Shown: positions 49,784 through 63,254 of the stretch, in pieces
Position numbering within the stretch: the first letter of the stretch is position 1
How the letters are laid out: each line of letters begins with the position of its first letter
From: a candidate division FCPU426 bacterium
GTDB lineage: Bacteria > Oederibacteriota > PGYV01 > Palsa-1178
Assembly: GCA_963840035.1 (NCBI GenBank)
Contig: CAWIXE010000002.1
Coordinates: forward strand, 640,001-704,000
Direction: 5' to 3'
Length of the DNA stretch: 64,000 nucleotides
Translations under genes and position numbers: made by a program
Notes under the pieces: model-generated
The model's database searches: none
What the model saw: the letters and a program-made list of their open reading frames with translations, nothing else
What the model was told of the DNA's origin: nothing

Positions 49784-49864
49784 TATGCGTTGTGAAATTA
49801 AGAACAAAGCTTTTTCGGTCGGCCGATAAAGCACACAGTAAGATCATATGTGAGAGGTGTCTCT

Positions 49865-50647
49865 ATGGCTGTCAGGAAGAAAGTTAAAAAACCGAAGAAG
49901 AACGGCTCTTCAAAGGAAAAAAATGAGATATTAAAGCTGAAGGAAACCATCAGGGAAAAGGAAAAGGAAATTGAGACCTTAACCGAGATAAGCAAGTCCA
50001 TAGTATCCGGCAGGTATCTTGAGGAAATCCTGAACATTGTAGTATCCCTGACGGCTGAAATGATGGATTCCAAGATTTGTTCCATCATGATACTTGAAAA
50101 AAATCAGCAGGAGCTTAAGATAATCGCCACGCAGAGCTTAAGCGAGGATTACAGGCATAAGTCGAATATCCCTGTGGGGCAGTCGATCTCCGGCAAGGTA
50201 GTCCTTGAAAAACGGCCCATTACTGTTTTGAACGTCACGAAGGAAGAGAATTACATGTTCAAGGAGATAGCGAAAAAAGAAGGGCTTAAATCAATGCTCG
50301 CGGTGCCCATGATGCTCCGCGGAAAAGTCCTTGGTGTTATAAATATATATACAACCGAAGAGCACGTTTTTACGGAGAGCGAAATACGCATCCTGCAGTC
50401 CGTGGCAAACCAGGCCGCCATCGGCATAGAAAACGTAAAACTGGTAGAAGAAACATCGGTGGCAAAGGAAGCGCTGGAAACGCGCAAGCTCATAGACAGG
50501 GCAAAAGGCATACTGATGAATAAGCTGAAGATGACGGAAGACGCAGCATATAAGTCCATACACAAGAAGTCAATGGACTCAAGGAAATCAATGAAGGAAG
50601 TCGCGGAAGCCATAATACTCGCGATGGAAATGGAAAAGAAAGCATAA
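49865..50647 (+). CDS. GAF and ANTAR domain RNA-binding regulator
   Basis: GAF (SMLAVPMM...GVINIY...FTESE...VANQAAIGIEN) followed by ANTAR (LETRKLIDRAKGILM...EDAAY..I.K.SMD...M.EVAE.I). Confidence 0.93.
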   Translation: MAVRKKVKKPKKNGSSKEKNEILKLKETIREKEKEIETLTEISKSIVSGRYLEEILNIVVSLTAEMMDSKICSIMILEKNQQELKIIATQSLSEDYRHKSNIPVGQSISGKVVLEKRPITVLNVTKEENYMFKEIAKKEGLKSMLAVPMMLRGKVLGVINIYTTEEHVFTESEIRILQSVANQAAIGIENVKLVEETSVAKEALETRKLIDRAKGILMNKLKMTEDAAYKSIHKKSMDSRKSMKEVAEAIILAMEMEKKA

Positions 50648-50725
50648 GGAAAGTAGCGCGCAAATTTACGTCGGCAGGCCGCGGTCACAGCGCTGTGATT
50701 CCGGCCTGTAATAACAATTTCTGCT

Positions 50726-50779
50726 TGAACACACTGATGTGTTCAGACTAATGTGTACTTTGAGGCACAATGACGTGCC
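50726..50779 (+). promoter_or_regulatory. Twin-hairpin ANTAR target RNA upstream of gdhA
   Basis: TGAACAC-ACTGAT-GTGTTCA and GGCAC-AATGAC-GTGCC. Both hexaloops have A1/G4 and a C-G closing pair, with an 18-nt linker. Confidence 0.85.
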
Positions 50780-50835
50780 GGCGGCAGGATTGTCATTAAA
50801 TAACATAACAGCGCATACGAAGCAGGAGGGAATAG

Positions 50836-52421: not shown

Positions 52422-52520
52422 CGGCGTTAAAAAGCAAAACCCGCCTGCGCGGGGAGGAGCCGCAGACGGGTTTGTGCGTCCTATATTGGTAATTAGTCAT
52501 TAGTAATCAGTAATTTATTT

Positions 52521-52862
52521 TTAACCGATCGCCATTTTTCCTTTTTCGCCGGTCCTTATCCTGTAGCATTCTTCCATGGGCATGACAAATATCTTCCCAT
52601 CACCGGTCTCGCCGGTCTTAGCGCCTTTCATAATGGCTTTGACCGTGGCGTCAAGGTAATTATCATTTACTGCGATTTCAAGGCGGATCTTGCGGAGCAG
52701 GTTTCCGGTTTCCTTTACGCCCCTGTATACTTCCGTGATGCCTTTCTGCCTGCCGTGTCCGAGCACCTCGTTAACGGTTATCAGGTTTACATCTGCCTTA
52801 TAGAGCTCCTGTTTTACTTCCTCAAGCATGTGAGGCTGGATTATCGCGATTACGAGTTTCAT
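52521..52862 (-). CDS. glnK: P-II nitrogen regulator
   Basis: GHGRQKG, YRG, TGETGDGKIF and RIRTGE motifs; downstream of amt. Confidence 0.95.
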   Translation of the reverse strand: MKLVIAIIQPHMLEEVKQELYKADVNLITVNEVLGHGRQKGITEVYRGVKETGNLLRKIRLEIAVNDNYLDATVKAIMKGAKTGETGDGKIFVMPMEECYRIRTGEKGKMAIG

Positions 52863-52956: not shown

Positions 52957-54273
52957 CTATTCAATCAAAGTATACGCGCTTTCATGGTGCTGGGTTAAGT
53001 CAAGTCCTATGGCTTCTTCTTTGGCTTTTACCCTGACGCCCATTACCAGGTCGATTACTTTAAGCAGAACGAAAGTCATTACCAGCGTCCAGACTATTGT
53101 TATTCCGACCGCGATAGCCTGTATCAGAAGCTGTTTCGGGTTGCCGTAAAAGAGCCCGTTAAATCCTGCGGAGTTGACCGATACCGTGGCAAAGAGCCCT
53201 GTTGCCAGCGCGCCTACTATGCCGCCGATGCCGTGCACTCCAAAAGCGTCCAGGGAGTCGTCATATCCGAGTTTTGTCTTAACTATGGCTACCATGAAGT
53301 AGCAAACAAGGCTCACAAGTATGCCTATGGCAAGCGCGCCTGTTACATCCACGAAACCTGCGGCCGGCGTTATTGCGACCAATCCGGCTACGGCGCCTGT
53401 GATAGTACCGAGCATTGTCGGCTTACCATTGAGCATCCAGTCAAGTCCGGCCCAAGTTAAGGCTGCCATCGCGGCTGCTGTGTTCGTAACCACAAAGGCG
53501 TTTGCGGCAAGGCCGTTCGCTGCCAGGGCGCTTCCCGCGTTAAATCCGAACCATCCGAACCATAGCAGCCCTGCTCCAAGAACGGAAAGCGGAAGGTTGT
53601 GCGGCGTAGTAGGTTTTTCATAGCCAAGTCTCTTGCCGAGATAAAGCGCGGTGACAAGCGCAGCAACACCTGCGTTAATGTGCACTACAGTGCCTCCGGC
53701 AAAATCAAGGGCGCCCATGTTTCTTAAAAATCCTCCGATACCCCATACCCAGTGGCAGAGAGGGTCATATACAAATGTAGCCCACGCCAGGATGAATACC
53801 AAAAATGCGGAGAATTTCATCCTTTCCGCGAACGCGCCTATGATAAGCGCGGGCGTGATTATCGCGAACATGGCCTGAAATATCATGAAAGCCTGGTGCG
53901 GTATTGTAGCCGAGTAATCGGGGTTTGCTTCAAGCCCGACTCCTTTTAAGCCGAACCATTCAAAGCCTCCCCAGAACCCGGTGCCCGGGTGAAAAGAAAG
54001 GGAGTAACCGATCAATACCCACTGTACGGACAGGGCCGCAAGCGCGATCATTGCCTGCATTAAGACCGAAAGCATATTCTTTTTCCTTACCAAGCCTCCG
54101 TAGAAAAAAGCAAGTCCCGGAGTCATGAGCATTACAAGAGCCGCGGAAATCAGGACCCATGCCGTGTCTCCCGCGTTTATAACAGGGGCAGGAGCCGCGG
54201 CGGCCGCGGTCTCGGCGAACGCAAGGCCGGCTGCCGTAAGAGCGAGCATTACAATCATCAATAAGCGTTTCAT
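52957..54273 (-). CDS. amtB: Ammonium transporter
   Basis: MTPGLAFFYGG, DFAGGTVVH, WFGWFGFN and DAFGVHG motifs (twin His intact). Confidence 0.97.
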   Translation of the reverse strand: MKRLLMIVMLALTAAGLAFAETAAAAAPAPVINAGDTAWVLISAALVMLMTPGLAFFYGGLVRKKNMLSVLMQAMIALAALSVQWVLIGYSLSFHPGTGFWGGFEWFGLKGVGLEANPDYSATIPHQAFMIFQAMFAIITPALIIGAFAERMKFSAFLVFILAWATFVYDPLCHWVWGIGGFLRNMGALDFAGGTVVHINAGVAALVTALYLGKRLGYEKPTTPHNLPLSVLGAGLLWFGWFGFNAGSALAANGLAANAFVVTNTAAAMAALTWAGLDWMLNGKPTMLGTITGAVAGLVAITPAAGFVDVTGALAIGILVSLVCYFMVAIVKTKLGYDDSLDAFGVHGIGGIVGALATGLFATVSVNSAGFNGLFYGNPKQLLIQAIAVGITIVWTLVMTFVLLKVIDLVMGVRVKAKEEAIGLDLTQHHESAYTLIE

Positions 54274-54296: not shown

Positions 54297-54998
54297 TTAA
54301 AGACTGAAGTTATATGTCAGGGATAAAGAACCCGTTACAGCGTTTTCGTACTGGTCATCCAGTGCAGCCTGGAAGAAGACTGAAGGGGATACAACAAATC
54401 CCGCTATGGTGTAGCTGCCTGCCAGGGTTACGCCGAGCACGGTAAAAGACGGCTCGTAGAGCCACTGTCCGTAATTGTAACCGGCGGTTAAAGCGCCTGA
54501 TAAACCAAAATCTCCGAATGTAAGCGAGTGCGATACTCCGCCTTCCAGATACCCGCCCTTGCCCTGAACAGCGTCATAATAGAATGTCAGGTAAGGCAGT
54601 GATGGAACTGAACTGCTGATCCCGGCGATAATTTCCACCGAGTTGTTGTAAGCGGGGGAAAGATAGGGGAACGTATATGCCGTATAACCCGCTTTTACCG
54701 AAAGAAAATCCGCGTAAGGCACCGCCTGCGTGTAAGTTACTGTATAGTCTGATTCGTTGTACTGCATGTCTCCGCCAAACGCGTGGTACGAACCCCAGTA
54801 ACCGAAACTAAACCCGCCTGCTGTAAGTGATAAACCCGGCTGAATGGCAAAGCCATCGGATAAAACCTGGCCGCGCCATAAATACTTCGTTACTCCTGCC
54901 GTATAAACGCTGCCGCTTAAAGCTGCCGCGCTTAAAGCTGAAAAACCAGACATTGCCATTACTGCCGTCAGAACTACTGCGAGAACTTTCCTTTTCAT
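54297..54998 (-). CDS. TorF-like putative porin upstream of amtB
   Basis: Start MKRKV after AGGAGG. KYLWRGQ...AIQP...YWGS...ESDY motif and beta-barrel-type C-terminus. Confidence 0.75.
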   Translation of the reverse strand: MKRKVLAVVLTAVMAMSGFSALSAAALSGSVYTAGVTKYLWRGQVLSDGFAIQPGLSLTAGGFSFGYWGSYHAFGGDMQYNESDYTVTYTQAVPYADFLSVKAGYTAYTFPYLSPAYNNSVEIIAGISSSVPSLPYLTFYYDAVQGKGGYLEGGVSHSLTFGDFGLSGALTAGYNYGQWLYEPSFTVLGVTLAGSYTIAGFVVSPSVFFQAALDDQYENAVTGSLSLTYNFSL

Positions 54999-55122: not shown

Positions 55123-55138
55123 AGCACGACCCGTGCCA
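55123..55138 (-). promoter_or_regulatory. Sigma54 (-24/-12) promoter of porin-amtB-glnK
   Basis: Minus strand TGGCAC-GGGTC-GTGCT. Confidence 0.8.
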
Positions 55139-55162
55139 CAAATCAAAAATAGCTTAAAATGG

Positions 55163-55239
55163 TGGTTATATTATAGTCACGTCAAGAATCAATGGTCAAA
55201 AAACATACAATATAACAATTAGTGGTTAAATATCATGCA
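55163..55239. promoter_or_regulatory. Three 17-bp enhancer-like boxes at 30-bp spacing
   Basis: TGGTTATATTATAGTCA (55163), TGGTCAAAAAACATACA (55193), TGGTTAAATATCATGCA (55223). Confidence 0.65.
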
Positions 55240-55421
55240 ACAATAGGCGGGTTTATTCAAAGCGTGAGTAAAGATGTGATATATAAATATAGGTGATATT
55301 AGTCTATTTATAGTGGAAGCAGGATGCGACTAAAACATTTGTAATAGTGTATTATATTTACAGGCAGATTAATAAGTGTATTGGATGCCAGGATTAATCA
55401 ATTAGTATAAAGGAGGGGAAA

Positions 55422-55589
55422 ATGAGCACTTCAAATTACGCAGCAGGAGGAATAGGGTTAGGAAGTTTAATTGCGGTACTGTTGATATGGCAGGTCCATC
55501 ATTCCATATTGTGGTGTATTTTAGGCGCGTTTTTAAGCTGGTTTTATGTGATTTTTTACGTTTTAAGGTATTATCTGCACCTTTTTTAA
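55422..55589 (+). CDS. Small membrane protein (55 aa)
   Basis: AAGGAGG SD. MSTSNYAAGGIGLGSLIAVLLIWQVHHSILWCILGAFLSWFYVIFYVLRYYLHLF. Below the ORF-track cut-off. Confidence 0.7.
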   Translation: MSTSNYAAGGIGLGSLIAVLLIWQVHHSILWCILGAFLSWFYVIFYVLRYYLHLF

Positions 55590-55614
55590 AATCTGAAACT
55601 TTTTTGGAGGTTTT

Positions 55615-56388
55615 ATGCGTAAATTTTTATTTCTGACAGTTCTGGCTGTATTTTTATCCGTACCCGCTTTTGCCGCTTTACAAATCAGCGTAAGCGGAGG
55701 GTATTCCTATTCAAATCTTGATAATCTGAAGAGTTATTGGGAAAAAGCCAAAGTGGATGCTGAGGCGTACACGACAACGTCTAACGCAGACTGGAAAGGT
55801 TACAGCAACGGAGTGTTTGGCAATCTTGATGTAAATATTAATATTGACAAATCAATACTGGTTGGGGCGAGAACAGGTATTCAGTACATATTTCCATCCA
55901 CTTACTCAGGGTTTCGCGTTATTAATATACCGCCGCTTACATGGGTATATACAGAAACATCCATAGAGAATTATCTTATTCCGGTTATGGCGGGCGTAAA
56001 TCTGTACATGCCGATGGGAACTGATTCGGCCATAGCAATTAACGCGGCCGCATACGCGGGTTGGGGGCTTGCTTATTGCGCCCAGAAGACAAAGTATAAC
56101 AACTCTGAGGCGCTGCTCGCCCTTTATGGCGGCAATGGGTTTGTGGCGGATTTGACAGCGTCGGTTGAAGTAAAAATACTGGCTTTTCTAAGCGCAAGCT
56201 TAAACGGCGGGTACAGATTCGCGAAAATGACGGATTTTAAGAATGTAAAAAGCGTCAGCGCGAATGTCCCGGGTTACGGTATGTATAACATACCCACAAA
56301 TGATCCGTTTAACGACGGAAACGGCAAACCGGTTGATGTTGATTTCTCCGGAATAAATATCGGAGCGGGTTTGAATTTAAGGTTTTAA
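55615..56388 (+). CDS. Outer-membrane beta-barrel protein, paralog 5
   Basis: Same family as 1625-5189 (LIPVMAG, YAGWGLA, GYRFA, VDFSGINIGAGLNLRF). Confidence 0.75.
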   Translation: MRKFLFLTVLAVFLSVPAFAALQISVSGGYSYSNLDNLKSYWEKAKVDAEAYTTTSNADWKGYSNGVFGNLDVNINIDKSILVGARTGIQYIFPSTYSGFRVINIPPLTWVYTETSIENYLIPVMAGVNLYMPMGTDSAIAINAAAYAGWGLAYCAQKTKYNNSEALLALYGGNGFVADLTASVEVKILAFLSASLNGGYRFAKMTDFKNVKSVSANVPGYGMYNIPTNDPFNDGNGKPVDVDFSGINIGAGLNLRF

Positions 56389-56407
56389 CAAATAGCATAA
56401 GAAATAT

Positions 56408-56460
56408 AAATGGCAGGCATTGTATTAAGCGCCGATGCGCTTTTTAATGCCTGCCATTTT
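56408..56460. terminator. Bidirectional terminator between convergent genes
   Basis: aaatggcaggcatt ... aatgcctgccatttt. Confidence 0.75.
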
Positions 56461-56499
56461 GTTTTATTGGATTTAATCAAATTCTAACTGAGGATATTA

Positions 56500-56841
56500 T
56501 CAGCCTATGGCTACATGGCCTTTTTCACCGGTCCTTATCCTTGTGCATGACTCAAGCGGCAGCACGAAGATCTTGCCGTCGCCGGTTTCGCCCGTATGTG
56601 CGCCTTTCATTATGGCTGCGATTGTGGCGTCCAGGAAGTTGTCGTTTACGGCAATTTCAAGGCGTATCTTGCGCAGCAGGTTTCCGGTCTCTTTTACGCC
56701 CCTGTAAACTTCTGTAATGCCTTTCTGTCTGCCGTGGCCCAATACTTCGTTTACTGTTATGAGGTTAACATCGGCTTTGTAAAGTTCCTGTTTAACGTCC
56801 TCCAGCATGTGCGGCTGGATAATGGCGATTACGAGTTTCAT
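56500..56841 (-). CDS. glnK: P-II nitrogen regulator, second copy
   Basis: Nearly identical to 52521-52862. Start MKLVIAI after AAGGAGG. Confidence 0.95.
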   Translation of the reverse strand: MKLVIAIIQPHMLEDVKQELYKADVNLITVNEVLGHGRQKGITEVYRGVKETGNLLRKIRLEIAVNDNFLDATIAAIMKGAHTGETGDGKIFVLPLESCTRIRTGEKGHVAIG

Positions 56842-56861
56842 AAGAGCCTCCTTAGAGTTTA

Positions 56862-56945
56862 TGTGTGGTGCTTTGGATAGTGGTGCGTGGTAAGTGGTAT
56901 GTGCCACGTACTGCACACCACACGTACCACGCATCACGTACCACT
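56862..56945. repeat. Inverted degenerate TACCACG-family heptamer arrays
   Basis: agtggtg cgtggta agtggta ... gtaccac gcatcac gtaccac. Confidence 0.75.
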
Positions 56946-58238
56946 TTAATCTATCAGCGTATAAGCCCTTTCATTATGTTCGCTGACATCAAGCCCCAGC
57001 ACTTCTTTTCTATCCTCAACCCTGACGCCGATTGTTATTGAAACGAGTTTGTATATTATAAACGTGGCGGCGACTGTGTATGCGACAGAGGCAAAAGCCC
57101 CCAGGGACTGTATCATGAACTGCTTCGCGTTTCCGAAGAATAGGCCGTCAGCGCCGGCGGGGTTGATCAGTTTTGATGCAAACAGTCCTGTCATAAGCGT
57201 GCCTAAAAGCCCGCCTATGCCATGGACGCCGAACGCGTCGAGGGTATCGTCGTAATTTATTTTAGGTTTCAATATGCTCACAGCCAGATAACATACGATA
57301 GAAGTTGTTATGCCTATTATAACGGCCGGAAGAGGGCCGATAAATCCTGAGGCTGGTGTTACTGTCGCAAGGCCGGCAATAGCGCCTGTGGCTGTTCCGA
57401 GCATTGTGGGTTTTCCCATTGTGATCCATTCAATGCATGCCCAGGTGAGCGCGGCTGCGGCAGCTGCCGTATTTGTGGATAGAAAGGCGCTGATGGCAAC
57501 GTTGTTTGCGGAAAATGCGCTTCCGGCGTTAAAGCCGAACCATCCAAACCATAATAATCCGGCGCCAAGCACGGTAAAAGGGAGGTTGTGTGGAGTGGGT
57601 ACTGCAGTATGGTTCCTGCGTTTCCCAATGACAAGGGCCGTTACCAGCGCGGCGAAACCGGCGCTGATATGCACTACAATACCGCCCGCGAAATCCAATA
57701 CTCCCATGGTCTGAAGCCAGCCGCCGCCCCATACCCAGTGGCACAGCGGATTATAGACAAGCGTTGCCCACAGCAGCGAAAAGAGTATATATGCGGAGAA
57801 TTTCATCCTCTCCGCAAAGGCGCCTATGATGAGGGCGGGAGTAATAACCGCGAACATCATCTGGTATATCATGAAAAGTTGATGGGGAATGTTCGGGGCA
57901 AAAGGAGCCGGTTCCATGCCGACATTGGCCATGCCGAGGTATTTAAAACCGCCGATAAAGCCGTTTCCCGGCGCAAATGAAAGGGAATACCCGAACAGAA
58001 TCCACTGAATGCTTATCAATGCCATGGCAATAAAGCACTGCATAAGTATTCCGAGGATGTTTTTCTTCCTGACAAGGCCGCCATAAAAAAAGGCGAGTCC
58101 CGGTGTCATGAGAAGTACAAGCGCCGAAGAAACAAGCATCCATGCGATGTCACCCTTGTCGTAAACAGGAGCGTCGCCGGCCAGCGCAAATGAAGATAAT
58201 GCAAAAACGGAAAAAATAAGGTAAAAAATTCGTTTCAT
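56946..58238 (-). CDS. amtB: Ammonium transporter, second copy
   Basis: Start MKRIFY after GGAGG. DFAGGIVVH and DAFGVHG motifs. Confidence 0.96.
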   Translation of the reverse strand: MKRIFYLIFSVFALSSFALAGDAPVYDKGDIAWMLVSSALVLLMTPGLAFFYGGLVRKKNILGILMQCFIAMALISIQWILFGYSLSFAPGNGFIGGFKYLGMANVGMEPAPFAPNIPHQLFMIYQMMFAVITPALIIGAFAERMKFSAYILFSLLWATLVYNPLCHWVWGGGWLQTMGVLDFAGGIVVHISAGFAALVTALVIGKRRNHTAVPTPHNLPFTVLGAGLLWFGWFGFNAGSAFSANNVAISAFLSTNTAAAAAALTWACIEWITMGKPTMLGTATGAIAGLATVTPASGFIGPLPAVIIGITTSIVCYLAVSILKPKINYDDTLDAFGVHGIGGLLGTLMTGLFASKLINPAGADGLFFGNAKQFMIQSLGAFASVAYTVAATFIIYKLVSITIGVRVEDRKEVLGLDVSEHNERAYTLID

Positions 58239-58321
58239 TGATGTTCCTCCCCGTGTATTATCCCTTCTACGAATAATCAACGCGGAACCTCAAATGTCCT
58301 TCTCTCCAACGCAAAATTAGT

Positions 58322-58704
58322 GGGCCCGCCGCGTCGGCGCGGCGGGCCCGGTGTCAGCGTCGAAGTAGAAGGGATTTTTAGATGGCGCTAAAGCGCCATC
58401 TAAAAATCCCTTCTTGCTTTTGTAGGGGCCGCCCTATGTGGCGGCCCGCTGGCAGTAAGAACTTGTCCTTCGTTTTGGGCGATTCGTGAATCGCCCCTAC
58501 AAAACCAAACGGGACCAAAAGAAACCTCTAAAAATCCCTTCTTGCTTTTGTAGGGGCCGCCCTATGTGGCGGCCCGCTGGTAGTAAGAACTTGTCCTTCG
58601 TTTTGGGCGATTCGTGAATCGCCCCTACAAAACCAAACGGGACCAAAAGAAACCTCTAAAAATCCCTTCTTGCTTTTGTAGGGGCCGCCCTATGTGGCGG
58701 CCCG
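58322..58704. repeat. BIME-like REP array: 128-bp unit x about 2.4 plus flanking palindromes
   Basis: GTAGGGGCCGCCCTATGTGGCGGCCCG at 58422, 58550 and 58678, with inverted GGGCGATTCGTGAATCGCCCCTAC partners. 23-bp perfect inverted repeat at 58367-58414. Confidence 0.9.
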
Positions 58705-58751
58705 ATGCTGATGATTTGTTTATGGTTTAAAAGAACAGTTCTAAAGATTTA

Positions 58752-58782
58752 TACCCGGGGCGTGTTCATCACGCCCCGGGTA
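58752..58782. terminator. Hairpin after GS-III
   Basis: tacccggggcgtg-ttcat-cacgccccgggta. Confidence 0.65.
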
Positions 58783-58798
58783 AGTTTTGATTTGTTAT

Positions 58799-60910
58799 TT
58801 AAAGCTTAAAAAGCATATCCGCGTAAGTCGGAACGGGCCATGCTGACGCCGGCATAATCTTCTCAGCCGCATCAACGTCTTTCCTTATGTCTTTAAGAGC
58901 CACAAAAACTGAATCCCTGTACATCTCGGCTTTCTTGACTGTTTCGCTGGTGTCCTGAGCCTTAACAGTGGCTTCCTCAAGCTTTGCTGTCTTTGATACT
59001 ATTGACTCAAGAAGCGTAGTGACGCTTTTCAGAAGAGCGGTCTGCGATGATGTTGAAACGCCGGTATCCTTAACAGCGCCTATTGTCTTGGCTAATTTGC
59101 CGGTAAAACCAATGACAGCCGGGATATAGAGCGTGTTGAGCATCTTTAAGGCTGTCATTGCCTCAATGTTGATGCATTTTGCGTACTGTTCTATATAGAT
59201 CTCGTACCTTGAGTGCAGTTCTTCGTTTGAGAGCACATTGTATTTTGCGAAAATATCCTTTGCTTTCTGTGTAGTGAATGCCTTATGGGCGTCCACTGTG
59301 TTCTTTACGTTCGGCAGTCCGCGTTTTTCGGCTTCTTTTACCCATTCTTCCGAGTAGTTGTTGCCGTTGAATATTATCCTGCCGTGGTCTTTCAGGGTCT
59401 CTTTTAAGATTGTCTTAATCTCGCTGTTTACATCTTTTGATTTTTCAAGCCTGGTTGCGAATTCATCAAGCGTCTCAGCCACTACCGTGTTAAGTATGAT
59501 GTTGGGGCTGGCTACTGAAGCTGAGGAACCGACCATCCTGAATTCGAACTTGTTTCCTGTAAAGGCGAAAGGAGATGTCCTGTTTCTGTCTGAGTTGTCG
59601 ACAGGGAACTGCGGGAGCGTATCCACGCCGATTTCGATAGGAGCGTTCTTATAGCCGTCAATCTTCCTGCCTTCCGCGACGGCCTTTATGGTTTCTGTAA
59701 TCTGATCTCCAAGGAACATGGAGATAATTGCCGGCGGGGCTTCGTTTGCGCCGAGCCTGTGGTCGTTACCCGGTGTTGCCGCGGCGCCTCTTAGCATATC
59801 AGCGTGTTTATCGACTGATTTGATAAGGGCTGAGAGAAATATAATGAACTGAGCGTTGTCGTGCGGATTGTCGCCCGGTTCCAGCAGGTTCATACCGTCA
59901 TCAGTGGAAAGCGACCAATTATTGTGTTTTCCTGAGCCGTTTACTCCCGCATATGGCTTTTCGTGGAGCAGGCATACAAGTCCGTGCCTTAAAGCCACTT
60001 TCTGCATGGTTTCCATGGCGAGCTGGTTATGGTCTACCGCAAGGTTCAGCGTCGCGTATACAGGCGCCATTTCAAACTGCGCCGGGGCAACTTCGTTATG
60101 CCTTGTCTTGGAGGAAATTCCCATCTTCCAGAGCTCGAGGTCTAGGTCTGTCATGAATGTTGAAACTTTATCCTTGAGCGCGCCAAAGTACTGGTCCTCA
60201 AGTTCCTGGCCTTTAGGCGACGGCGCGCCAAAAAGGGTGCGGCCCGTTAACATCAGGTCAAGTCTCTGCAGGAAGTATGTTTTATCTATCAGAAAGTATT
60301 CCTGCTCAGGCCCGAGAGTTGCAATAACCCTTTTTGTGTTTTTGTTTCCCATGGCCCGTAATACCCTTAAAGCCTGTTTTGATACGGCTTCAATTGAGCG
60401 AAGAACAGGAATCTTTTTATCAAGCGCTTCGCCTGTATATGAGTAGAAAGCCGTAGGTATGCAAAGTGTTACATCGCCATCTGAATCTTCCTTTAAGAAT
60501 GCCGGTGATGTGGGGTCCCATGCCGTATATCCGCGCGCTTCAAATGTGGCGCGTAATCCGCCGGAGGGGAATGAGGAAGCGTCAGGTTCGCCTTTAATTA
60601 GCTGGTTGCCTGAGAATTCCATTATGACGCTGCCGTCATCAGTGGGTGATATGAATGAGTCGTGTTTTTCAGCCGTTGTGTTTGTCAAAGGCTGAAACCA
60701 GTGGGTGTAATGCGACGCGCCGCGGGAAATGGCCCAGTCCTTCATGGCGTTCGCGATTACATTCGCGATTTCTTTTGTCAGGGGTTTGCCAGCTTCGATT
60801 GATTTTTTAAATTCCCTGAAAATGGTCTTTGGCAGGACTTCTTTCATTAACTTGTCATTAAAAACATTTGAACCAAATACTTCCGCAACATTTAACAACT
60901 TTTTTTCCAT
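58799..60910 (-). CDS. glnA: Glutamine synthetase type III
   Basis: 703 aa. [45 protein letters not shown] and [17 protein letters not shown] motifs. Confidence 0.96.
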
Positions 60911-60956
60911 GTTATATCTCCTTCGCCGACGATTTTAATACCTTTGGTATCATATA

Positions 60957-60972
60957 AGCAATATGCGTGCCG
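60957..60972 (-). promoter_or_regulatory. Sigma54 (-24/-12) promoter of GS-III
   Basis: Minus strand CGGCAC-GCATA-TTGCT. Confidence 0.85.
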
Positions 60973-61021
60973 TTTAAATTGATAATAATATAAGGGGTTT
61001 ATCAGCTTGTCACAAATTATT

Positions 61022-61141
61022 TGGTCAAGAATCATACAATAATTTCTCTTGAGTGGTTAAATATTAACCAAAAATTCTGATATTATGCTTGATTTATAAG
61101 GCGGGATATAGTAAATTGACCATGTGATTAGGTATTAACCA
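61022..61141. promoter_or_regulatory. 17-bp enhancer-like boxes shared with the amtB promoter
   Basis: TGGTCAAGAATCATACA (61022), TGGTTAAATATTAACCA (61054), TGATTAGGTATTAACCA (61125). Confidence 0.7.
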
Positions 61142-61169
61142 TTAAATGAGCAATAAAGGGAGTTTTCCT

Positions 61170-63254
61170 ATGTCAAAAAAACAGGAACCTATGAGCCAGC
61201 AGGATGGCGATTTTGAAAAGAAGATAATCAAATTAAAGCTGGTTCATTATATATCGGTTGAAATGAACAAGCCGCATTCCACAAAAGACCTCCTGACGCT
61301 TATACTTGAGCGCTGTCTTGAGTTAACCGGCGCTAAAACCGGAAGCGTAATGCTCATAGATGAAAAGGACCAGGTTCTGGATATAGTGGCTTTTAAAAAC
61401 CTTCCCATAAAGGCCGCGGAGAGTCCCAGGCTTAAACTCGGCGAGGGCGTTACGGGCTGGGTGGCGCAGACAGGAAATCCCAAACTGATAAATAACACCA
61501 GGCAGGACCCGATATATGTAAAAGTAAGGGAAGATCTTTTATCCGAACTTGCTGTCCCGATAAAAACTGAGAACAGGGTCATAGGCGTTATCAGCGTCGA
61601 CTCAAATAAGCAAAACGCGTTTACCGAGGATGACCTGGAGCTTTTAATAATGGTGGCTGAACTCGCGGCGCAGATTATTACCAAGGACCTTATACAGGAA
61701 CGTTTAAGCTCCAAAATACTTTCACAGGAGATATTAATAGATACTTTCCATATAATAGAACAGGAAGAATCCTTGAATGAGGTTTTCAACAAGGTTATGG
61801 AAGTGTTAAAGGGTAAAATGGGAATCCTGCGCGGCATGCTTGTGCTTTTTGACAAGGAAAATCCTGATTCGCTGAAAATTTACAGCGGTTATAAAATCAG
61901 CGAGGACGCCATAAAGAACGGCGTTTATAAGATTGGTGAAGGTATCATTGGAAACACGGTGTTAAAAGGGCAGACAATAGCCGTGGAAGATGTTACAAAG
62001 GACCCGAATTATTTAAACAAGCTGAAGATTCACAGGCAGGAAAAGAACTCGATTGTAGCCGCGCCAATCAAGGCGGGGCCGCGCGTGCTCGGCGTCCTTG
62101 AAATAGAAAAGGTTTTTGACGAGAAGGAGCACTTTCAGGATGGCGTTGATACCATCACTCTGCTTGCGTCCCTTATCGCGTACAGGGTAAGGAGCTTCCA
62201 GCGCCAGCAGGATGAAACGCAGAAACTTATAAGCGAAAATATCGAGCTGCGTAAAGAATTAAAAAAGGAATACAGCTTTAAAAATATTATCGGCAAGAAT
62301 GAGCAGGTAAGGAAAATACTGGAGCAGGTAAAAACGGTATCCAATACAACCGCGCCGGTGCTTATTACAGGGGAAACCGGGACAGGCAAGGAACTAATAG
62401 CTAAAATTACTCATTTTTTAAGCGACAGGCGCGAGAATAAGTTCATAAGCGTGAACTGCGCCGCAATCCCCGAGAATCTGCTGGAATCAGAACTCTTTGG
62501 CTATGAAAAAGGGGCGTTTACAGGGGCGGCCGGAAATAAAAAAGGAAAGTTTGAGCTGGCTGATAAAGGAACCCTGTTCCTTGATGAGATAGCTGAAATG
62601 CCGCTGCAGCTCCAGTCAAAGATACTGCGCGCGCTGCAGGAAAAAGAAATAGAGCCGCTGGGCAGCGAGAAAACGACAAAAGTGGACATACGCATAATAG
62701 CGGCCACGAATAAGGATTTAAAAAAGCTCGTGGATGACGGGAAGTTCAGGGCGGACCTGTTCTTCAGGCTAAATGTCATAAGCGTGCACATGCCGCCGCT
62801 GCGCGAGCGCAATGACGACATGCCCCTGCTTGTGGATTTTTTCATAAAAAGGTATAATGAACTGTATAATAAACAGGTGGCGGGCATAGATAAAAGCGTC
62901 GATGAAATATTTAAGAACTACCAGTGGCCCGGCAACATCAGGGAACTGGAAAATGTCATTGAACGGGCTGTTATTATGGCAAAAGGGAGCCTGATAGACA
63001 TATCGCTTATTCCTGACGCCATAAATCCCGCAAAGAACAAAGATGAAGGGTTCAATATCAGGAATTACATAAAGATAGAGGCAAAGAAAAAAGCCGATGG
63101 AAGCATATACAAGGAAGTAATAGGCGCGCTTGAAAAGTCGCTGATAGAGGAGCTGCTTGTTGAAACAGGAAACAACAAACTGCAGACAGCCGTAAAGCTC
63201 GGGATAAACAGAAATACGTTAAAGTCGAAAATGAAGGAATATGGGATAAATTAA
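61170..63254 (+). CDS. NifA-like sigma54-dependent activator (GAF-GAF-AAA+-HTH)
   Basis: Two GAF domains, GETGTGKE, intact GAFTGA, LFLDEI, WPGNIRELEN and Fis-type HTH (LGINRNTL). Confidence 0.93.
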   Translation: MSKKQEPMSQQDGDFEKKIIKLKLVHYISVEMNKPHSTKDLLTLILERCLELTGAKTGSVMLIDEKDQVLDIVAFKNLPIKAAESPRLKLGEGVTGWVAQTGNPKLINNTRQDPIYVKVREDLLSELAVPIKTENRVIGVISVDSNKQNAFTEDDLELLIMVAELAAQIITKDLIQERLSSKILSQEILIDTFHIIEQEESLNEVFNKVMEVLKGKMGILRGMLVLFDKENPDSLKIYSGYKISEDAIKNGVYKIGEGIIGNTVLKGQTIAVEDVTKDPNYLNKLKIHRQEKNSIVAAPIKAGPRVLGVLEIEKVFDEKEHFQDGVDTITLLASLIAYRVRSFQRQQDETQKLISENIELRKELKKEYSFKNIIGKNEQVRKILEQVKTVSNTTAPVLITGETGTGKELIAKITHFLSDRRENKFISVNCAAIPENLLESELFGYEKGAFTGAAGNKKGKFELADKGTLFLDEIAEMPLQLQSKILRALQEKEIEPLGSEKTTKVDIRIIAATNKDLKKLVDDGKFRADLFFRLNVISVHMPPLRERNDDMPLLVDFFIKRYNELYNKQVAGIDKSVDEIFKNYQWPGNIRELENVIERAVIMAKGSLIDISLIPDAINPAKNKDEGFNIRNYIKIEAKKKADGSIYKEVIGALEKSLIEELLVETGNNKLQTAVKLGINRNTLKSKMKEYGIN

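Follow-up and report, generated by a model that had tools for sequence, protein, structure and literature searches.

Which protein commands the nitrogen genes of a bacterium in which the classical regulators of nitrogen assimilation are not readily recognised? The question arises from a window of 64,000 nucleotides (the whole stretch of DNA that was analysed; coordinates are counted from its first letter) of a candidate division FCPU426 bacterium (Oederibacteriota; PGYV01; Palsa-1178; assembly GCA_963840035.1, contig CAWIXE010000002.1, positions 640,001 to 704,000), in which a type III glutamine synthetase gene (GS-III) and a porin-amtB-glnK operon stand behind sigma54-type promoters close to the gene of an activator with two GAF domains. 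Judging from sequence, this activator very probably binds paired 17-bp boxes and switches on both promoters in nitrogen shortage, in the role that NtrC holds elsewhere. That the feature is real is well supported: it is a one-component nitrogen regulon of the EbpA type, whose motif and wiring are better defined here than we found described. The EbpA-RpoN pathway of Leptospira was reportedly set out by Hu et al. in 2017.

Two sigma54 promoters with paired boxes

An earlier note on this DNA had claimed two -24/-12 promoters, and both read as GG-N10-GC on the minus strand. With a matrix built from relatives, the promoter of GS-III (GGCACGCATATTGC, 60957..60972) scores 22.2 and that of porin-amtB-glnK (GGCACGGGTCGTGC, 55123..55138), to which equivalent sites correspond in relatives, 15.4. 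Above the GS-III promoter lie a proximal box (61022..61038), 51 bp from the GG, and, 32 bp from it, a distal box (61054..61070), a perfect palindrome (TGGTTAAATATTAACCA) with the best single-box score of the genome (21.3). The porin promoter is preceded by a triple array in 30-bp steps, made up of a promoter-proximal box (55163..55179, score 12.5), a middle box (55193..55209, score 11.4) and a distal box (55223..55239, score 12.3) at offsets of 26, 56 and 86 bp. The note's reading of this layout holds: the four 17-mers at 61022, 61054, 55193 and 55223 have the sequences quoted and spacings of 32 and 30 bp, they begin 51 and 56 bp from the GG where about 50-55 bp had been claimed, and both further copies that it lists, at 55163 and 61125, are confirmed. 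In its consensus, TGGTYAA-N3-TYAWCCA, the right half should read TTRAYCA, and the corrected, symmetrised form, drawn from 79 sites, is TGRTYAA-W3-TTRAYCA.

The activator and the nitrogen-control genes of the genome

The presumed reader of the boxes is an EbpA-like sigma54 activator of 694 aa (61170..63254, plus strand), recognised from Pfam, Leptospira homology and an AlphaFold model and encoded divergently from GS-III (58799..60910, minus strand), as had been claimed. The Pfam scan finds two GAF domains, a sigma54 AAA+ domain (PF00158, 244 bits) and a Fis-type helix-turn-helix (HTH_8), with no match to a receiver domain, and the GAFTGA, Walker A/B and R-finger motifs are all intact, which bears out the receiver-free GAF-GAF-AAA-HTH protein of the note. 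The start is probably at 61170, behind the ribosome-binding site AAAGGGAG, and not at 61146 as proposed, the frame being open from the ATG at 61146 too. The AlphaFold model has a predicted local distance difference test score of 83.9, the fold matches NtrC1, FleQ and PspF, and an Atlas search with the protein led to generic clusters of bacterial enhancer-binding proteins (bEBPs). The recognition helix, G[IL/V][NH]RNT, is NtrC-like and kept throughout the family, whereas the other bEBPs carry different helices. AAA+ motifs, an rpoN gene and -24/-12 promoters with upstream sites together identify the protein as a sigma54 enhancer-binding protein.

The genome itself (3.46 Mb, 98% complete) carries rpoN, whose absence the note had named as fatal to the circuit, together with seven bEBPs, three PII genes and GS-III as the only glutamine synthetase (GS) found. 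The six other bEBPs all fall below the NtrC cut-off (best 428.7 against 558.6 bits); among four neighbouring kinase-like genes scanned for NtrB, one gave a match, of 113 against a cut-off of 240. No family match to GlnD or NifD/K was found in the genome, and those to NifH are weak and partial. The idea of a nitrogen control independent of NtrBC is thus supported by a genome without NtrC or NtrB above cut-off, by a motif that tracks nitrogen genes throughout the order and by the loss of this motif with the activator in two genomes.

In the mechanism that we propose, two activator dimers (three at some promoters) would sit on one face of the helix, on boxes 30-32 bp apart; once bound they would assemble the ATPase ring, and looping would bring it to the sigma54 complex, which would then be opened. 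A further dimer on the sigma70 start site of the activator gene would repress that gene. The GAF pair would read its signal without phosphorylation, and, where relatives possess nif genes, the protein would also drive a second activator, of the NifA-like kind.

Conservation of the element and tests on untrained promoters

Our sample of the order comprises 24 genomes, the own genome (G000) and 23 others. Activator orthologues (62-85% identity) occur in 18 of the 23, and a search at E 1e-40 for the GAF-GAF part in 75 genomes from elsewhere in the phylum found none; the nearest named homologues are labelled Candidatus Goldbacteria or Goldiibacteriota, the next Aureabacteria and Spirochaetes. Among the 17 activator loci whose upstream region is present, a GS gene is divergent from the activator in all (type III in 16, type I in one), and all 17 have kept the -24/-12 site and the box pair in front of it. 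The type I gene (G010:C10, L043/L226) has the same promoter and box pair facing the activator, and therefore the element follows function, not gene. The two boxes are 32 bp apart in 12 loci, 31 bp in four and 41 bp in one, and they stand 42-43 bp (six loci), 51-54 bp (nine), 64 bp (one) or 214 bp (one) above the promoter, the offsets progressing by roughly a helical turn at a time (Rayleigh p 7e-6 over 16 loci, without the one at 214 bp and with related genomes that are not independent). A strict pattern of this kind matches in 14 of the 24 genomes and its reversed control in none; outside the training loci, every match precedes GS, amt or porin-amt. A half-site scan of metagenomes returned 118 loci, mostly chance matches, of which only the top-scoring one (L159) is a true activator/GS-III locus; swamped in this way, the scan teaches nothing about other phyla. 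A search of the genome contigs for related loci gave one locus only.

For a test out of sample, the box matrix was trained on 32 sites from 16 relatives with the own genome left out; G2, T4 and A6 are invariant in 32 of these 32 sites. Applied to the 3.46 Mb of the own genome, the relatives' matrix gave nine composite matches, and in the scan near sigma54 sites that the note had called for, the two claimed promoters rank first and second (50.9 and 39.1). The third match (38.2) is the dnaK promoter, with another palindrome. The amt promoters of relatives, none of them used in training, offer a second test: from 30 of 35 amt matches we obtained 23 distinct -24/-12 promoters. In 19 of them a pair scores at least 15 and exceeds every one of its 60 shuffles, the spacing being exactly 30 bp in 18; the remaining four carry a single strong box each. 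The median pair score is 28.8, against 9.0 for 12 dnaK sigma54 promoters. The triple array at 26/56/86 bp recurs in six of 24 amt-operon promoters, that of the window included.

Links between the boxes and the activator

Neither the activator nor amt is matched in the genomes G016 and G019, both of which have kept rpoN; the 450 bp upstream of their GS-III genes contain no -24/-12 site (best scores 1.6 and 7.1) and no box (best scores 0.1 and 3.0). G011 and G017 were left out of this count of losses because their GS-III genes lie at contig ends, and G001, which has no GS, amt or activator match, was left out of the comparisons.

The activator gene has a box of its own. The copy at 61125..61141 (TGATTAGGTATTAACCA, matrix score 10.8) lies at the predicted start site of a putative sigma70-type promoter (61089..61117, plus strand; TTGATT-N17-TAAATT, 8/12 match), and TTGACW-N16-TATAAT stands at the equivalent position in five relatives. 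In six of seven loci of the family a distance of 7 bp separates the -10 hexamer from the start of the box, which suggests autorepression; the autoregulation that the note had held possible gains support from this arrangement, and, on sequence grounds, the box on the activator's own start site is likely a site of autorepression. A box overlaps the sigma70-like promoter in 16 of 17 loci, a count that has no shuffle control and is partly geometric.

Further down the hierarchy, single-GAF NifA-like genes have a -24/-12 site and a strong box in all three relatives examined. The nifH promoters of G023 and G007 have the -24/-12 site and no box; G018, in which no NifA-like paralogue was found (E 1e-100), has weaker boxes at nifH. 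By analogy, the boxes at the nifA-like promoters likely reflect an NtrC-like cascade, NtrC holding the corresponding place above nifA in enteric bacteria. Full nifH-PII-PII-nifDKENB clusters with -24/-12 promoters occur in G023 (L313), G007 (L314) and G018 (L315), and two more nitrogenase-like genes, forming a pair, are present in G005 and G007. In G007 the nifA-like gene is followed by a gene for a 632-aa permease-like protein (L316:506-2404, APC type by reading) with a -24/-12 site and a strong box at 127 bp.

Nature of the signal

What would the GAF pair sense? The nearest solved relatives of GAF1 are a phosphodiesterase GAF (E 1.1e-9) and two PtsP/EI-Ntr GAFs (E 1.6e-7 for PtsP), and those of GAF2 are the GAFs of Nlh1 and NifA. 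According to the accessible part of one report, the GAF domains of EI-Ntr bind glutamine (PMC4848567). On the strength of these resemblances we lean slightly towards a small molecule as the signal, either glutamine, which would inhibit through the PtsP-like GAF1, or 2-oxoglutarate, which would act through the NifA-like GAF2, or both. The lack of a GlnD match favours such direct sensing over GlnK binding.

The sensing step also admits a second scheme, in which the regulon is the same and the activator is controlled mainly by GlnK binding to its GAF domains, 2-oxoglutarate acting through PII; we regard it as quite possible, without being probable. There are two GlnK genes within the regulon, GAF2 is Nlh1- and NifA-like, and PII control of AnfA through its GAF has been proposed, as far as the accessible text goes (PMC12093980). 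Both window GlnKs (glnK-1, 56500..56841, and glnK-2, 52521..52862, both on the minus strand) have Glu at the site of the uridylylated tyrosine of enteric GlnK. That residue is Tyr51 in the enteric numbering. With no GlnD found and no Tyr51, the signals open to PII would be limited to 2-oxoglutarate and nucleotides; it could not relay glutamine, which leaves a role for ligand binding by the PtsP-like GAF1. The third PII gene of the genome (G000:C1:555947-556264, L042) lies elsewhere, inside a chemotaxis-like operon with open reading frames that resemble CheR, CheW, CheY and MCP by reading.

Who reads the boxes

It would be very unlikely, in our opinion, that the boxes are bound by another regulator, be it a bEBP of the receiver type, of which there are five, or a factor outside the bEBPs, and that the two-GAF gene is a mere conserved neighbour or target. 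The genome does have six other bEBPs, and, as is shown by a related 17-bp palindrome arranged in the same way at dnaK, sites of this sort serve other activators too. Against this stand the box on the activator's own promoter, its NtrC-like helix (NtrC reads 17-bp TG...CA sites too), from which the helices of the other bEBPs differ, and the loss of the boxes together with the activator, while the dnaK palindrome persists in the activator-less G016; the two motifs are therefore separate. Another reading, in which nothing specific reads the 17-mers and they are either AT-rich tracts of the bending or IHF-like kind or remnants of a duplicated promoter, can be dismissed almost outright, for although the intergenic DNA is AT-rich and loose lone matches are at chance level, the invariant G2, T4 and A6, a spacing and helical phasing fixed across nine families, and the recurrence at unrelated promoters (amt, nifA-like, APC-type permease) with absence from shuffles all speak for a specific site.

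Some points nevertheless weigh against the two-GAF activator as the nitrogen-responsive reader of the boxes. In the window as compared with shuffles, lone boxes are at chance level (8 matches with at most 3 mismatches, 8.2 expected), and therefore the case rests on pairing, on position beside -24/-12 sites and on conservation. Three of the 12 dnaK promoters also score at least 15, owing to the related palindrome that they carry. What ties the protein to the boxes is synteny and co-loss in only two, incomplete genomes (G016 89%, G019 84%), and related genomes are not independent. The similarity of GAF1 to PtsP is modest and that to the phosphodiesterase GAF slightly better, which makes the ligand a guess. 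From the target genes we infer expression that depends on nitrogen. In trees computed with the own-genome bEBP own_1112k left out of both, all 24 two-GAF proteins fall on one side of a branch with support 51/35, seen in 54% of bootstrap trees, and a tree of the AAA domain does not resolve them; at this support, orthology with Leptospira EbpA is likely only.

The dnaK promoter was considered as a member of the regulon and rejected on account of its different palindrome, kept where the activator is missing. This palindrome marks a second conserved sigma54 enhancer, 5' of dnaK (G000:C1:1042440-1042556, L039/L190; TGTTTCA-N3-TGAAACA), often paired 30-33 bp apart and placed 34-85 bp above the -24/-12 site; the pattern occurs in 12 of the 24 genomes of the order, and 12 of 17 loci checked have both the sigma54 site and dnaK. 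No box pair accompanies the -24/-12 site with the highest score in the genome (23.3, at G000:C1:641166), which precedes a small gene, presumably gatC.

A conserved RNA element behind GS-III

Just downstream of GS-III lies a conserved RNA element (58322..58375, minus strand) composed of an invariant seed, CCCTTCTACTTCGAC, and a hairpin, rich in GC, whose loop reads CCGA(C). It occurs in 11 of the 24 genomes, always just 3' of GS-III, and has no Rfam family at the gathering score. Nine of its 11 stem pairs change on both sides, which none of 500 shuffles reaches; slid controls remain about half paired. Pairing between the seed and the GS leader of the same genome is significant in seven of 10 genomes (z -3.5 to -6.0), but not in the own genome and G004 (z about -1 for both) or in G015, and it is seen in none of the seven GS leaders from genomes that are devoid of the element. 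The hairpin loop region of the window copy, CGCCGACG, is exactly complementary to CGTCGGCG, which lies immediately 5' of the ribosome site of GS (leader at about 60911-60940), and, read by eye, the seed matches GTAGAAGGGAT before that of amtB-1. In five relatives the amtB leader carries a hairpin whose GTCGG loop can pair with GCCGAC of the element. Its pattern of complementarity suggests that the element may be a small RNA from the 3' untranslated region (3'UTR) or a cis element of the amtB leader, and possibly a feedback RNA of an undescribed kind. As in the case of GlnZ, a small RNA from the 3'UTR of E. coli glnA, as far as the accessible literature describes it, it is situated at the 3' end of a GS transcript that depends on sigma54; unlike GlnZ, it has no Rfam match, its seed has its complement in the leader of GS itself, and it is known from structure and complementarity only.

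The GS 5' leader of relatives was considered as a riboswitch and rejected: it has no Rfam match and no consensus fold, and it is the complement of the 3' element. After glnK-2, at about 52436-52475 (minus strand), another hairpin has a loop, TCCTCCCCG, complementary to the ribosome site CGGGGAGGA of amtB-1. Between GS-III and amtB-1, at about 58380-58710, three tandem palindromic units of about 128 bp resemble repetitive extragenic palindromic (REP) elements; relatives have shorter versions.

Genes of the two operons and their surroundings

Upstream of the ammonium transporter amtB-1 (56946..58238, minus strand) no -24/-12 site of its own was found, and it is probably reached by read-through from GS-III. 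The first gene behind the other promoter (54297..54998, minus strand) has no Pfam or NCBIfam match; its top Atlas match, a Gcw_chp cluster (0.96, 68% of members), is taken as a lead only to a Gcw_chp-like outer-membrane porin. It is followed by amtB-2 (52957..54273, minus strand), identified with Pfam. Between the nitrogen operons, and divergent from the porin promoter, lies an outer-membrane beta-barrel-like gene (55615-56388, weak TDE1717 match). A GAF-ANTAR protein (49850-50647) is encoded directly 5' of gdhA, whose leader (50648-50835) contains small hairpins that could be an ANTAR target; the genome scan found no -24/-12 site or box pair at gdhA.

Comparison with known systems

The arrangement recalls glnAp2 of E. 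coli, where two 17-bp TG...CA-type sites, which we take to be NtrC sites, also stand 32 bp apart above a -24/-12 promoter; the site sequence differs, the Goldbacteria matrix scoring the E. coli glnA region at most -1.0. NtrC has a GRNTL helix comparable to NRNTL and the same kind of targets (GS, amtB-glnK, nifA), and it represses its own sigma70 promoter. The window activator departs from it in having no receiver or kinase and no GlnD, and scores 333 bits with the ntrC model against 559; with no receiver and no NtrB above cut-off, we rejected an identity with NtrC. NifA is its best NCBIfam match (TIGR01817, 475 bits, cut-off 529) and GAF2 resembles the GAFs of NifA and Aquifex Nlh1, but the additional N-terminal GAF, the different recognition helix and a genome in which no nif genes were found set it apart. 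Sites of the NifA type, TGT-N10-ACA, are absent, and the NifA-like paralogues of relatives group apart from the two-GAF activators in the tree. Having two GAFs, a score below cut-off and no NifD/K match in the genome, the activator was not taken for NifA. FhlA, HyfR and NifA share 32-38% identity with it over part of the length only; an identity with FhlA/HyfR was likewise rejected at 341 against 830 bits, neither GAF aligning to these proteins. In Desulfovibrionales, the accessible part of one study describes DVU1949 as a one-component bEBP predicted to act on amt-glnK, GS and itself; its motif (e.g. GTTTCAGAAATGGAAG) is 16 bp long and its helix, LTPRQMGYRI, NifA-like (PMC4641369).

The closest counterpart is EbpA of Leptospira interrogans. 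As the accessible text of a review has it, EbpA has two GAF domains and binds upstream of amtB, and EbpA and RpoN are needed for amtB transcription and for growth under nitrogen limitation (PMC12655853). The window activator shares 42% identity over 691 aa with the Leptospira two-GAF bEBP (41% in GAF1), both its GAFs align to it, and the recognition helix LGINRNTL is identical. The cluster of this homologue includes L. interrogans proteins, and we infer that the homologue (P0284) is LIC_10132/EbpA from the single two-GAF bEBP that the available portion of the review lists for this species (PMC12655853). Two N-terminal GAFs without a receiver, full-length collinear homology and a sigma54 target at amtB, here predicted from the motif, make it likely that the activator belongs to the EbpA subfamily. 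Both are one-component GAF-GAF-AAA+-HTH activators of sigma54 with amtB as a target, as far as the accessible sources show (PMC12655853, PMC5243855); the window system differs in a gene divergent from GS, a defined paired 17-bp motif, a likely autorepression and, in relatives, a nifA-like target. The parts of both sources that were accessible give neither an enhancer consensus nor a signal for EbpA (PMC12655853, PMC5243855), and a literature search that did not reach most subscription papers found no published work on nitrogen regulation in Goldbacteria.

A far-reaching extension, in our opinion rather unlikely, would make EbpA-type activators a one-protein replacement of GlnD-PII-NtrB-NtrC across phyla (Goldbacteria, Spirochaetota, Aureabacteria), which would sense glutamine directly, by an EI-Ntr-like GAF, read TGRTYAA-W3-TTRAYCA (the Leptospira EbpA enhancer too), govern a nifA cascade and be damped by a structured RNA, so far undescribed, at the 3' end of GS, which would pair with the leaders of GS and amtB. 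The principle of regulation is not a new one: the circuit type is already known, because Leptospira EbpA shares the architecture and activates amtB. Beyond that circuit come the order-wide motif, the box at the activator's start site, the nifA-like targets and the covarying RNA element. An uncultured lineage without NtrBC and GlnD likely runs its nitrogen hierarchy (GS, amtB, nifA) from one protein, and the family of which Leptospira EbpA is the only tested member gains a well-supported predicted binding motif and a regulon. Given the identical recognition helix, the same motif is predicted for EbpA of Leptospira.

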